NCBI RefSeq assembly: GCF_054482525.1
Contig: NZ_CM137006.1
Length of the DNA stretch: 64,000 nt
Strand: one strand, 5' to 3'
The translations under genes were made by a program, and so were the position numbers. Shown one piece after another: positions 1,907-5,855 of the stretch (position 1 is its first letter; each line of letters opens with the position of its first letter). Below the pieces are notes generated by a model. It was not told the origin of the DNA. It did no database searches and saw nothing but the letters and a program-made list of their open reading frames with translations.

Positions 1907-4900
1907 TCAAATCCAGGTATCTCTGCGGGGTTGCATCTTTTTAAAATAATCAGAGACAGAGGCTCCCATCTCATCCCCAGTTCCCGAACTCATTAATCCA
2001 TATCGATTTGCCGCCGCAGCATGCCCAAAAGGATTATCAGGAACGGGGCCGTTACCTATTATCATAGTACTAAGCCCTAATGGATCAACGTGTTGCACTG
2101 GATTCAGCGGATATTGGTACAGATTCCATCCCCCCTTCAGCCCAATCGGGTCCTGGATGATATACCGCCCCTGCAACGGATCGTAGTACCGGTGACGGTT
2201 ATAATACAGCCCCGACTCCTCATCGTGTTGCTGCCCTGGCAGACGGTACGGCTGGTGCAGGTGATGCGGGTTTTCCTCATTCAGCAGGTTGCCCCATTCA
2301 TCATACTCCCCGCTCCACGCCGTATTTCCGTCTTCGCTGATGAGCGCCAGCGGCAGGCCCCGGTGGTCGCAGTGGTAAAGATGAACTTTTCGCGCCGGTG
2401 TGTATTCCGGCTCCACCTGTTTTTCCAGTTGCTCCACCGTCAGCCCGCACTGCGCAAGCCACGCCCGGCTTTCACTGCTCACGCGGTCTGCCCGGATTTC
2501 CCCCTCCAGCCTGTCCAGCAGCCGCACCAGTTCAGCCGGGAACACCACGCCGTGTCCGTCCTCGCTCCCTTCCTGCTGGAGCTTCTCCGCCAGGCTCCGC
2601 CGCTGCGTTTTCTCCCGCTCGCCGTTGTCTGTTTCGATGCGGATGAGCGGTGTGAAGCTTCCCGGCTCGTATACCGTCTGGATACGTGTGCTGTCGGTCT
2701 GCACCGTCGTCAGGTGGTCGCCGTCCCAGCCGTACCACGTCACCTCCGGTTTACGCGACAGCGACATCCACCCCGTCAGGTCACGCTCCCGCCGCCATAC
2801 CCGTTTCGCCATTCGCCGTCCCAGCGGGTCGTAGAGGTAGCGGCTCTCGACCAGTGGCTCTCCATGCTGTATCCGCGTGTAGAACACCAGGCGGTGCTGG
2901 CTGTCGTAGTGGTGGGTCCGCTCGTCGTCCGTCCGTATCACACCCGCCGGGATGCGGTCCGTCTTCTCCGTCAGCCTGCCGTATTCATCGTGGCGGTAGA
3001 CATAGTGCGCATCCTCCGCGATGCGGTTATCCGGCCACACTGTGAGTGTACTGTCCGGGTGCAGCTCCGGGTCCGGCAGCCGGTTGCCCGCCGGGTCCGT
3101 GGCATACGGGATGCGGATGTCCAGGTCCGGTGCGAGGGTGCGCACGCTCTCCAGCCTGCCCGTGGCGCTGTAGCCGTATTCCCGCGTCTGTCGCGGGCCG
3201 CTGATGCGCACCAGGTCGCCGTTGTCATTCCACCCGTAGTCACGGTCATACACCAGGCTGTTCAGGTGCTGACTCTGTAACTGACCTGCGGGGGTGTATG
3301 TGCTGGTCAGTTCATATGCGGAATTACTGCCTGCCATGCTGCCGAAGCTGCGCACCGTCTCACGGTGCAGCCTGTCCCGCGTATACTCGACCAGCGGCGT
3401 CCCGCCCAGCTTCATTCCCGCCAGGTAACCGCTGCCATACGTCAGCCACTCCACCGGCGGCAGGCTGTCCGGCGTGACGCGGTTTGCCAGCCCCTGTTCG
3501 TTGTATGCCTGTTTCGTCTCATGCTGCCACAGCAGTTCCCCCGTCTCCGGGTTCTTCACCGTCTGGCGCTCACTGGTCAGACGGCCTTTATCGTCATAGC
3601 CGTAGTGGACCGCCACACGGTGGCCTTCACTGGTATGGCTGAGGGTGGTTAACCACCCGTGCTCATCCTACTGCCACTGCTCTGCCGGGTCGCCGTTCAC
3701 CGTCCGGTGCGTGATGCGGTCTGCTTCATCGTAGTACCACTGCGTGACCTGCCCCTCATCCTCGCTGCGGATGAGCTGCCCTGTGGCGCTGTACCGGTAA
3801 CGCTGTGTCCTGCCATCAAAGCCGCGCTGCTCCGTCAGGCGGTCCAGCACATCGTAGGTAAATTCACTCCGGCTGCCGTTCTCGTTGGTCAGCACGGTGA
3901 TGCGCCCGGCAGCGTCATACCCCATGCTGCGCGTCAGCCCGCCTTCCGTCACACTCACCGGACGCCCGCGTTTATCATATGCGATGGTGCTGCGTTTACC
4001 GTCCGGTGATATCGTTGCTGTCAGGTCGCCTGCGGCACTGTACTCATAACGGGTTTCACGCCCCTGCGCATCCTTCTGCCCTGTCAGCCTGCCGCGGCTG
4101 TCATAGAGACTATAAATACTGAGACCTTCCTCCCGGTGAACGGCGATTTGTTGACCGTACCGGTCATACTCATACCGCGTCATGTACCCCGAGCAGTCCG
4201 TGAAGGTCCGAAGCTGACCGTACCGGTTTCGCGTTATTCTCCGCGTTACCCCGATTCCGTCTTCCACCGCGCCGGGCAGGCTACTGCGGGGGGGAGTCAT
4301 AAAACCAGCGCGTAATGTTACCGTTGCGCGAGGTCTCTTCTGCCAGTCGGCCCTGACGGTCATATTTCCGGCTGCTGCGTAAACCATCCGGATATGTCAC
4401 TGAAGTCAGTTGCAACTGGCTGTTATAGCCATACCGCACCGTCCTGCCGTCCGGCAGTATCACTGAAGTCAGCTTTCCAGACGCCATATGCAGCCGGTAC
4501 ACCGTCCGCCGCCCCGCCGCATCCGTCTGCGCCTTCAGCCTCCCCGCCTCATCATACTCGCTGCGGGTGATGCTCCCGTCCGCATGCTCCTTCTTCACCA
4601 CCCGCTTCAGGCCACCTTCGCCTTCCGTGTACAGCACCTCCCGCCGGTTCAGGCTGTCCGTGATGGTCACACGGTCCTGCCCGTACTCAAAGCGGTAGTC
4701 AAGTCCCTCCGGGTTGACCTGCTCCGTCACCCGACCGGTATCATCATACCGGTAGCGGCTCTCCGGCCTCCCTGCATAATGGTGCGCCACCATCCGCCCG
4801 GCGTGCTCCGCATCATAAGTAAACCCGCGCACCTGCGTCCCGCTGCGGTCATACACCGCCCGCAGTTCTCCGCTGGCCGTGTACGTGTAGCGCGCCAGCG

Positions 4901-5855
4901 GCGCAGTCGGCTGTTCATCCGGGTATGCCGGGTCGTGTGTCAGCCACACCGCCTCCAGCCGGATACCGTTATCGGCACCGTATTCTGTACCGGCGGGCAG
5001 CGTGTCGGGGAAAGCTGAAGAAGAGGAAGCAGAACGGGGACCTGCAGGGGAAGATAAAGACGTGGCGCGCTGTTTACGGAAGGCTTCCGCCCGCTGCGCC
5101 TGCGTGGTCAGCGCCAGGTGAAAACGACGGCCCGCGCCGTCCGTCACCCTGGTGATTTCGCCAGCCAGTTCGCCTGCGGCCTCGCGGTGGAAAGCCAGTG
5201 AAAGCCCGAAACCGTCCACCACGCCCGTCAGCACCCGGTATGCAGGCGGCTCCGGCGGCAGCACTTCGTCCGCCTCCGGCACCCGCTCCGGCCAGCCGAG
5301 TATCCACCACGGCCCCTGAAGGCTGTTTGCCGCCAGGTACACATGCGGACTCAGGCGAACATCTTCCGGCAGCACCTGCCAGAGCGCGCTTAGCGGCTGC
5401 GAACTGTGCTGCTCCGCCACCCCGCCCCGCGCCAGCCAGAACGACTCACTGCGGCTGTAACTTATCTCGCCGGGAAACAGGGGTTCAAAGTGAATACTCC
5501 TGCCGCCACTGTCGTTGAGTATCAGGCCTTCATCGCGTATCTGTAAGCGGATATCGAAGGGGGCTTTCCAGCCGGGACCAAACACCCCCACCGGCGCGGG
5601 TGTCCTGGTTCGGTAGCTGCTGTAAGCGCGAGAAAGAATAAACGGCAGCGGGCCGGGCAGCGCAAGGTCCGTCTCGCCCGGCAGCACCTTCGCACCCAGT
5701 AGCGGGTTCACCGGGTTAGCATAGGTAATCCCTCCCGGACACACCGAGCAGGCCACTCCTGTCGGCGCACCTATCAGCCCCCCTGCTGAACCCTGCACAA
5801 TATCCAGTCCCTTGCGGGTCATGTCACCCTGCCGCGCCGCCGGTTTTCCGCTCAT
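1907..5855 (-). pseudogene. Second rhs copy (PAAR-like N-terminus plus YD-repeat core), disrupted by a frameshift and a nonsense codon
   Basis: Three consecutive minus-strand ORFs (4281..5855, 3668..4387, 1907..3616) are collinear with the 1181-aa rhs at 7096..10641. The first begins [13 protein letters not shown] like the intact copy. The frame changes inside a run of 7 G (plus strand 4288-4294, C7 on the coding strand). TAG at 3668-3670 sits where the intact copy has TAT in ...EQWQYDGHG. The last ORF ends with [13 protein letters not shown] plus a 54-aa tail. Confidence 0.75.
2860..3600. repeat. Near-identical direct repeat (copy A) shared by the two rhs genes
   Basis: Track ORFs 2971..3249 and 7773..8051 have identical translations, as do the starts of 3365..3652 and 8167..8889; the offset is exactly 4802 bp. 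Protein comparison shows about 250 nearly identical residues. Extent approximate. Confidence 0.7.

Follow-up and report, generated by a model that had tools for sequence, protein, structure and literature searches.

Three inactivating mutations in rhs2, very probably a clade-wide pseudogene of a T6SS-linked Rhs toxin in E. coli

The gene rhs2, carried on a 64,000-nucleotide stretch of E. coli DNA (the window), is very probably a pseudogene that is fixed in one E. coli clade and carries three independent inactivating mutations, and that formerly encoded a T6SS Rhs cage with a predicted cysteine hydrolase. Direct observation covers the lesions with their ancestral states and inheritance, as well as the modular make-up of the gene, and nothing was found that contradicts pseudogene status. 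The clade comprises about 34 complete E. coli genomes, including that of the porcine ExPEC strain PCN033. The gene, its lesions and its immunity gene lie at the following window positions:

1625 to 5855, minus strand: rhs2 pseudogene; removing one C and reverting two stops gives a 1,409-aa Rhs protein
4281 to 5855 (524 aa), 3668 to 4387 and 1907 to 3616, minus strand: rhs2 fragment ORFs in the ORF list
4288 to 4294, minus strand: run of seven C (plus-strand G7), one base longer than the functional C6 and so a +1 frameshift
4281 to 4283, minus strand: out-of-frame TAG that ends the first rhs2 fragment (524 aa), two codons past the run
3668 to 3670, minus strand: in-frame TAG (ancestral TAT, Tyr); rhs1 has TAT at 8471-8473
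2072 to 2110, minus strand: core-end motif PxxxxDPxGL, the boundary between Rhs core and variable toxin
1628 to 2071, minus strand: C-terminal toxin domain, 148 aa when repaired
1907 to 1909, minus strand: in-frame TGA (ancestral TGG, Trp) within the toxin domain
1625 to 1873, minus strand: 82-aa ORF, WP_000981126.1 'hypothetical protein', the severed tail of the toxin domain with Cys92
1226 to 1624, minus strand: rhsI2, presumed cognate immunity gene, 132 aa, intact, abutting the true rhs2 stop

A sequence-only reading of the window had described a second full-length rhs copy split into three ORFs, with one frame break at a C7 tract and another lesion changing TAT to TAG. This description holds for a near full-length paralogue with a +1 frameshift, and the features it named lie at the positions it gave. 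Repair in silico by deletion of one C joins the pieces into one ORF, interrupted by just two internal stops and running from an ATG at 5855 to a natural stop at 1625-1627. As the reading frame is interrupted by one frameshift and two in-frame stops, rhs2 is filed as a pseudogene of the Rhs/YD-repeat toxin family. PGAP labels identical loci 'RHS element core protein; frameshifted; internal stop', and the gene is already marked as a pseudogene in RefSeq, a case of ordinary pseudogene decay; a literature search returned no paper describing these particular lesions. The 524-aa N-terminal fragment could in principle still be produced.

The three pieces retain the architecture of an Rhs protein. Pfam identifies DUF6531, many RHS repeats (RHS_repeat PF05593, E = 3e-33, 9e-38 and 6e-11 on the three fragments) and an RHS core-end domain, with RHS PF03527 (E = 9e-18) just upstream of the core-end motif, 3' of which identity to other alleles collapses. 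The PAAR-like N-terminus that had been proposed is tentative: the PAAR tetrapeptide is present as residues 5-8, but Pfam PAAR_motif gives no match on rhs2 and a sub-threshold 17 bits (cut-off 27) on the upstream rhs1. DUF6531, RHS/YD repeats, PxxxxDPxGL, a variable C-terminal toxin, a small immunity gene directly downstream, linkage to vgrG, hcp and a T6SS and, tentatively, an N-terminal PAAR-like segment are shared with T6SS-associated Rhs toxins of the Enterobacteriaceae, among them the PAAR-type Rhs effectors of E. coli encoded after vgrG and the Rhs systems of Enterobacter cloacae and Salmonella. Unlike T6SS-associated Rhs effectors, rhs2 has a frame broken three times and a PAAR match below the Pfam threshold.

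The array is ordered vgrG-rhs1-rhsI1-rhs2-rhsI2 beside an intact-looking T6SS, whose cluster has yafV on one side and the tRNA-Asp/dnaQ region on the other; vgrG, hcp and tssA-M are adjacent, and a putative immunity ORF lies directly 3' of rhs2. In strain 1190, a member of the clade, vgrG, hcp and at least 13 T6SS core genes are annotated as intact. The remaining features of the array are:

10708 to 12816, minus strand: vgrG (702 aa, intact in this genome), first gene of the array, preceded by hcp and the T6SS core genes
6394 to 10641, minus strand: rhs1, the upstream full-length rhs, its sole lesion an in-frame TGA at 7096-7098 (ancestral TGG)
5932 to 6381, minus strand: rhsI1, presumed immunity gene of rhs1, 149 aa, intact
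1049 to 1180, minus strand: orphan rhs core-end remnant with CAG-to-TAG at 1154-1156 (…HPG-stop-QYDDESELHYNWHRYYNP…)
1 to 946, minus strand: transposase gene of the ISAs1 family (H-repeat type), truncated at the window start, bounding the rhs array

The frame break of rhs2 falls exactly in the run of seven, where the coding strand reads ...TGG TTT TAT GAC TCC CCC CCG CAG TAG. With one C deleted the translation becomes ...RWFYDSPRSSLPGAVEDG..., colinear with YDNPHSELP of the upstream copy, as the earlier reading had noted. The pattern goes beyond chance: the break sits exactly in a homopolymer, intact orthologues differ there only by having C6, and Tyr stands at the TAG position in most of the closest homologues. 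Among 5,426 complete E. coli genomes the exact C7 81-mer occurs in 33, the C6 allele in 248 and C8 (G8) in one, E300010. C6 is present in intact orthologues at the same locus (L011 and L013; WP_021516938, 1,499 aa, and WP_107236196, 1,498 aa). More distant orthologous alleles lack the run altogether: L010 has GATTTTTCCCGC here, and YDSSRSGLP or YDDPASELP stands in other homologous proteins. The C6-to-C7 frameshift is best explained by slipped-strand mutation; a homopolymer sequencing error, offered as an alternative in the earlier reading, is excluded by an identical 81-mer in 33 independently assembled genomes.

The second lesion, the TAG at 3668-3670, was likewise borne out against TAT at the homologous site (8473-8471) of the other copy. 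By exact 61-mer, TAG occurs in 32 of the 5,426 complete genomes and TAT in 1,851, and Tyr occupies the position in 115 of the 120 closest homologous proteins. A metagenome scaffold (L018) also carries this TAG within near-identical flanks, and has no C run and another toxin (Tox-WTIP), from which the TAG is probably the earliest of the rhs2 lesions. PCN033 has C7 and the TGA at 1907 with TAT at 3668, but that TAT lies within a 172-bp patch copied from rhs1, so PCN033 cannot show whether the TAG arose late. Since rhs genes are mosaics, the sequence of these events is uncertain: recombination could have shifted the TAG between backgrounds.

The third lesion was read as the stop codon of rhs2 both by PGAP and in the sequence-only reading, which ended the gene at 1907; its extent is in fact 1625-5855. 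Intact homologues read ...RRDTWIWIIDTTDEEE... at the site, and the sole toxin-coding difference from the intact cassette L005 is a plus-strand T in place of C at 1907. TGA is found in 33 complete genomes of the 5,426 (exact 61-mer) and TGG in 500. The stop truncates the toxin domain at residue 55 of 148, ahead of the conserved Cys92, and restoring C6 and TAT would therefore still give a toxin that lacks the conserved cysteine; the suggestion that G6 and TAT would make rhs2 an intact gene has to be abandoned. The strain lists for G7, TAG and TGA1907 are almost identical, and these matching lists and counts show the lesions to be vertically inherited mutations and not read errors. Decay as represented by L018 and PCN033 looks progressive and mosaic.

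The earlier tally of three nonsense-type lesions across the rhs array needs revision to four nonsense mutations and one frameshift, of greatly differing ages. The TGA that it reported in rhs1 is present at 7096-7098 and is private to this strain, with the TGA allele in none of the 5,426 complete genomes, so that it would be either a very recent mutation or a base-call error. In PCN033 the codon is TGG and the 1,420-aa protein is intact, the nonsense change being the only isolated point difference between the two rhs1 copies. The C-terminus of rhs1 contains HEFAH, a metallopeptidase-like motif. The reported TAG near 1150 is also real, and recurs at the yncH/ydcC vgrG-rhs locus of unrelated strains, annotated 'internal stop'; it is old and moves with its cassette among unrelated strains.

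Two groups of relatives show the ancestral TGG and C6. The vgrG-rhs locus between yncH and ydcC/nhoA (WP_105267598.1, WP_000014719.1) encodes an intact Rhs protein with the same toxin and the same remnant TAG, and its toxin/immunity/remnant/ISAs1 cassette is 98-99.8% identical to window positions 1075-2200. It differs from rhs2 in having TGG, an intact product of 1,406-1,409 aa and another chromosomal site, and its 5' two-thirds are different, the core being 54-80% identical in its 5' part. Orthologues at the same T6SS locus, after vgrG and next to yafV, comprise WP_021516938.1 (AR_0067) and frameshifted alleles in E-1246 and CFSAN061763; their 5' core is 85-98% identical and has the TCCCCCCGC context with C6. 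They differ from rhs2 in that C6, in another, longer toxin and in another immunity gene (WP_001077735.1). Relatives also carry other, independent lesions in the same array genes: a frameshift from G4 to G5, found in 132 C6-lineage genomes some 250 bp upstream of the C run, a 5' deletion of rhs1 in strain 1190 and the further clade members compared, a frameshift of vgrG in PCN033 and an internal stop in that of F344. Strain 1190 has indels relative to the window beyond rhs1 as well.

Such recurrence raises the possibility, which we regard as unlikely yet worth weighing, that the loss of rhs2 was a positively selected 'disarmament', in which toxins are knocked out again and again but the immunity genes and the T6SS apparatus stay in place. 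Independent lesions do strike the same cargo genes, with C7 in the clade, G4-to-G5 in its C6 relatives, rhs1 intact in PCN033 but lost in two ways elsewhere, and vgrG broken twice, and rhsI1 and rhsI2 are both intact. Moreover, nothing but the nonsense change at 1907 separates the toxin-coding sequence from the closest intact cassette, and the sole isolated point difference of rhs1 from PCN033 is likewise nonsense (7096), where stops would be expected from just 3.8-4.0% of random substitutions in these ORFs. However, this enrichment argument is post hoc and concerns two or three events, later lesions are expected under neutrality if the TAG came first (as L018 suggests), and E. coli in any case has many rhs pseudogenes and orphan fragments. 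The wider proposal, that selection is repeatedly and independently disarming rhs1, rhs2 and vgrG in related lineages, with immunity genes and secretion apparatus retained, and that the clade is on its way to being an immune non-killer, is somewhat less likely again; if it were true, the excess of nonsense and homopolymer changes in the small set of recent mutations would point to selection and not to neutral decay.

Far less probable is phase variation, with the C run acting as a contingency tract whose slipped-strand mispairing turns the toxin on and off. G6, G7 and G8 all occur in E. coli, and in a sister lineage the gene is frameshifted at another homopolymer (G4 to G5), but seven bases are short for a contingency tract, more distant orthologous alleles are without a run at the site, and the clade is fixed at G7 (33 genomes, with one G8) with no G6 and hence no reversion. 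The 'on' length would also restore no protein, as C6 leaves the TAG and TGA lying downstream. A programmed recoding site, at which a +1 frameshift or transcriptional slippage plus stop read-through would yield some full-length toxin, is more improbable still: UGA is the leakiest E. coli stop codon, near-cognate decoding by tRNA-Trp at 1907-1909 would restore the original Trp and polymerase slippage is possible at C runs, but one mRNA would need three independent events, UAG suppression among them, the 0-frame stop lies two codons past the run and away from the slip site, and the frameshift is not conserved, orthologues being in frame with C6 or without the run. That the C7 and/or the TAG are sequencing or assembly errors in a really intact gene has an equally negligible chance, since although homopolymers are error-prone on some platforms and the G8 of E300010 might itself be such an error, errors would be required at all three separate lesions, PGAP calls the same lesions independently, and the allele counts among the 5,426 complete genomes (the G7 81-mer in 33, from many laboratories, hosts and countries, and the 61-mers with TAG in 32 and TGA1907 in 33) exclude them.

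What was lost with rhs2 can be outlined from the repaired toxin. Searches of the toxin domain against Pfam and NCBIfam at E up to 10 gave no match, and the same libraries gave nothing significant for either immunity protein. The toxin domain is predicted to fold as a permuted papain-like (NlpC/P60-type) cysteine hydrolase in which His17 and Cys92 are conserved; the model has a papain-like fold with a His/Cys catalytic pair, and NlpC/P60-type sequence-profile membership was not found. The predicted fold resembles TseH, a T6SS cysteine hydrolase of Vibrio cholerae (PDB 6v98), YiiX (2if6) and MARTX RID (5xn7), at a sequence identity of 5-15% and with no shared sequence family; unlike these, the toxin is the C-terminal module of an Rhs protein, truncated here. 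Cysteine hydrolase activity is predicted, and a periplasmic target is probable. RhsI2 is a single residue (K6N) from the immunity protein encoded beside intact toxins, and its N-terminus (…IISC) looks like a lipoprotein signal.

The ancestral rhs2 product would have been a VgrG-loaded Rhs cage delivering a small permuted papain-like (NlpC/P60) cysteine hydrolase, which would probably have acted in the periplasm of the target cell and been neutralised by the lipoprotein-like RhsI2, whose gene is still intact. The gene now carries TAT-to-TAG at 3668-3670, slipped-strand C6-to-C7 at 4288-4294 and TGG-to-TGA at 1907-1909. It can no longer give a full-length Rhs protein, and the conserved cysteine of the toxin lies beyond the final stop.

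E. coli genomes are well known to contain rhs pseudogenes and orphan fragments, and rhs2 on its own matters little, as RefSeq flags it already. Its annotated 3' end is wrong, and WP_000981126.1 should be merged into the pseudogene. PCN033_0251 and PCN033_0252, which have been listed as candidate T6SS effectors (PMC6363058), are fragments of this inactive gene. Although the toxin module belongs to no assigned family, about 500 complete E. coli genomes have intact copies of it, and because it is predicted to be a TseH/YiiX-like hydrolase with a lipoprotein-like immunity protein, it would be a reasonable small target for experimental characterisation.

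On the minus strand, rhs2 opens with an ATG at 5855 and reaches a TAG at 4283-4281 after 524 codons, just past a run of seven C at 4294-4288 (coding strand GAC TCC CCC CCG CAG TAG). Past the C7 run, the +1 frame holds 206 further codons of RHS repeats before a TAG at 3670-3668, and beyond this TAG lie 586 more codons, up to a TGA at 1909-1907. With one C deleted, rhs2 becomes one frame of 1,409 codons, interrupted by exactly two stops. In Pfam, the first piece matches DUF6531 and RHS repeats, the second RHS repeats, and the third RHS repeats and the RHS core-end domain. The upstream paralogue rhs1 (10641-6394) is colinear, with YDNPHSELP where repaired rhs2 has YDSPRSSLP and TAT (8473-8471) at the site of the rhs2 TAG, and the sequence-only reading of these breaks (three ORFs, C7, TAG against TAT) is thus confirmed in every detail. 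The array comprises hcp, vgrG, rhs1, rhsI1, rhs2, rhsI2, a short rhs remnant and an ISAs1 transposase, of which the following are discussed here:

10708-12816, vgrG, intact in the window
6394-10641, minus strand, rhs1
5932-6381, rhsI1, presumed immunity gene of rhs1
1625-5855, minus strand, rhs2
1226-1624, rhsI2, presumed immunity gene of rhs2
1049-1180, orphan rhs core-end remnant with a CAG-to-TAG change at 1154-1156

The toxin and immunity cassette (1226-2130) is present in 566 complete E. coli genomes, in most of which it is part of an intact rhs after a vgrG, between yncH and ydcC/nhoA. The intact Rhs proteins of that locus are 1,406-1,409 aa long, their reading frames continuing for 282 nt beyond the position of the TGA in the window. 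The closest intact cassette (L005) differs from the window at 2 of 905 positions, one being K6N in the immunity gene and the other a plus-strand T in the window for C at 1907, which turns TGG into TGA. As intact homologues read on and L005 has TGG, the TGA at 1909-1907 is a nonsense mutation and a third lesion, with the natural stop of rhs2 at 1627-1625. The core of the earlier interpretation stands, but it missed this lesion and misplaced the 3' end: a natural stop at 1907, also assumed by PGAP, is not borne out. The 82-aa ORF at 1625-1873, a "hypothetical protein" (WP_000981126.1) in RefSeq relatives, is not a separate gene but the severed tail of the Rhs toxin domain, separated by the TGA.

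The 4.4-kb rhs2 region of this E. coli window is matched at 99% or better by 32 complete genomes, where PGAP labels rhs2 "RHS element core protein; frameshifted; internal stop". Allele counts come from exact short-word matching against 5,426 complete genomes. The run at 4288-4294 is G7 in 33, G6 in 248 and G8 in one (strain E300010); the site at 3670-3668 is TAG in 32 vs TAT in 1,851; and that at 1909-1907 is TGA in 33 vs TGG in 500. Carriers of the derived alleles come from many countries and were isolated from humans, dogs, chickens, wildlife and water. Because the strain lists of the three derived alleles nearly coincide, the lesions are taken to be inherited within one clade of ~34 genomes, including the porcine ExPEC PCN033, which its authors place in phylogroup D (PMC6363058). 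Sequencing error, which had been offered as an option for the homopolymer, is excluded by these population data, G7 recurring in 33 of the 5,426 genomes.

Same-locus orthologues (after vgrG, beside yafV) read TCCCCCCGC with C6, and intact examples are WP_021516938.1 (1,499 aa) and WP_107236196.1 (1,498 aa). The run is missing from more distant alleles, strain MLI110 (L010) reading GATTTTTCCCGC and other homologous proteins having YDSSRSGLP or YDDPASELP, so the C6 run is confined to a subset of rhs alleles, with a subsequent slip to C7. At the TAG site, 115 of the 120 nearest homologous proteins have Tyr. The C6 sister lineage has a +1 frameshift of its own, G4 to G5, ~250 bp upstream of the C run (exact allele in 132 complete genomes); it was seen in three compared loci (L008, L009, L012) at gene position ~1319, or window ~4540.

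Like rhs genes in general, this one is a mosaic. The window is identical to PCN033 over 1-3496; between 3497 and 3668 there are 27 differences, the final one at the TAG/TAT site. The PCN033 version of these 172 bp has 99.5% identity to rhs1, which makes them an intra-array gene-conversion tract. This tract runs up to the TAG/TAT site, and the TAT of PCN033 may therefore be a secondary overwrite of TAG. A metagenome scaffold (L018; ENA ERZ28656240 scaffold_9335, 1339-5885) carries the same array, near-identical to the window over 7193-4640 and 3893-3450, and shares the rhs2 TAG, at which its 728-aa ORF stops. The C run is absent, as 4640-3900 is a divergent patch of ~700 bp, and the gene ends in a different C-terminal toxin, Tox-WTIP, with a 114-aa immunity gene. 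In this scaffold the C-terminus has apparently been displaced, and patches recombined, in a gene already carrying the TAG. On the simplest reading, for which we infer the order, the TAG would have arisen first, the gene, dead by then, would have received the C-run segment and the present toxin cassette by recombination, and C7 and TGA would have been acquired later. Alternatively, recombination could have moved the TAG between backgrounds. A 6-bp CACTAC (His-Tyr) unit at 2905 (rhs2) and 7707 (rhs1) varies in its number of copies when this strain is compared with relatives, which is in-frame tandem-repeat slippage at the homologous site of both copies.

The repaired 148-aa toxin (1628-2071) has no Pfam or NCBIfam match; this module, with no assigned family, nonetheless occurs in ~560 complete E. 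coli genomes. Its database homologues number only 19, from E. coli, Salmonella and metagenomes, and share two motifs, one being NNCFSRTN. The toxin model resembles YiiX (2if6, 9.8), the Vibrio cholerae T6SS effector TseH (6v98, 9.2), a cysteine peptidase (3kw0, 8.2) and the MARTX RID acyltransferase domain (5xn7, 7.8); in Foldseek, TseH and 3kw0 came top, weakly. His17 and Cys92 are conserved, and the structural matches suggest that the ancestral toxin was a permuted papain-like (NlpC/P60-type) cysteine enzyme with these two residues. RhsI2 begins with a hydrophobic segment ending IISC, a putative lipoprotein signal, which suggests a periplasmic site of action. The TGA replaces toxin residue 55 and so precedes Cys92; the toxin would therefore be dead even with both upstream lesions repaired.

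Lesions also occur in the neighbours. The sole lesion of the otherwise full-length rhs1 is an in-frame TGA (7096-7098, minus strand), TGG in relatives; none of the 5,426 complete E. coli genomes has its exact 61-mer, which makes it either a change private to this strain or a base-call error. The rhs1 5' end is absent in the other clade members examined (L001-L004, L016); in PCN033 rhs1 is intact and vgrG frameshifted, and isolate F344 has a vgrG internal stop and IS insertions. Clustered differences and a 9-bp indel separate the rhs1 5' region (9823-9877 and ~9931-10530) from PCN033 and strain 1190, the latter with an additional ~600-bp deletion that accounts for its PGAP "missing N-terminus" call. 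The remnant TAG recurs identically beside the intact toxin cassette that unrelated strains carry at the yncH/ydcC locus; it is therefore old and travels with the cassette. A full T6SS core lies upstream of the array (tssB, C, E, F, G, tagH, tssJ, K, icmH, tssH, vasI, tssA, tssM); in the clade member 1190 its genes are annotated as intact. Large deletions join a truncated rhs directly to tssF in E300010 (L014) and to a tagH remnant in MLI110; hence in some strains the apparatus itself is undergoing loss.

One rival worth keeping, though unlikely, is that the loss was driven by selection and was not neutral. Independent lesions keep turning up in rhs1, rhs2 and vgrG, immunity genes and T6SS apparatus persist, and the isolated point changes in toxin-coding parts are all nonsense vs 3.8-4.0% expected of random substitutions, but this last argument is post hoc and draws on very few events. 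A phase-variable switch fails: the C run is short and fixed within the clade (no reversion to G6 among ~34 genomes), and its "on" length would leave the protein unrestored. Programmed recoding to a full-length product fails too: it would take three separate events, and the frameshift itself lacks conservation. Already flagged as a pseudogene in RefSeq annotation, rhs2 is an ordinary, vertically inherited Rhs pseudogene.
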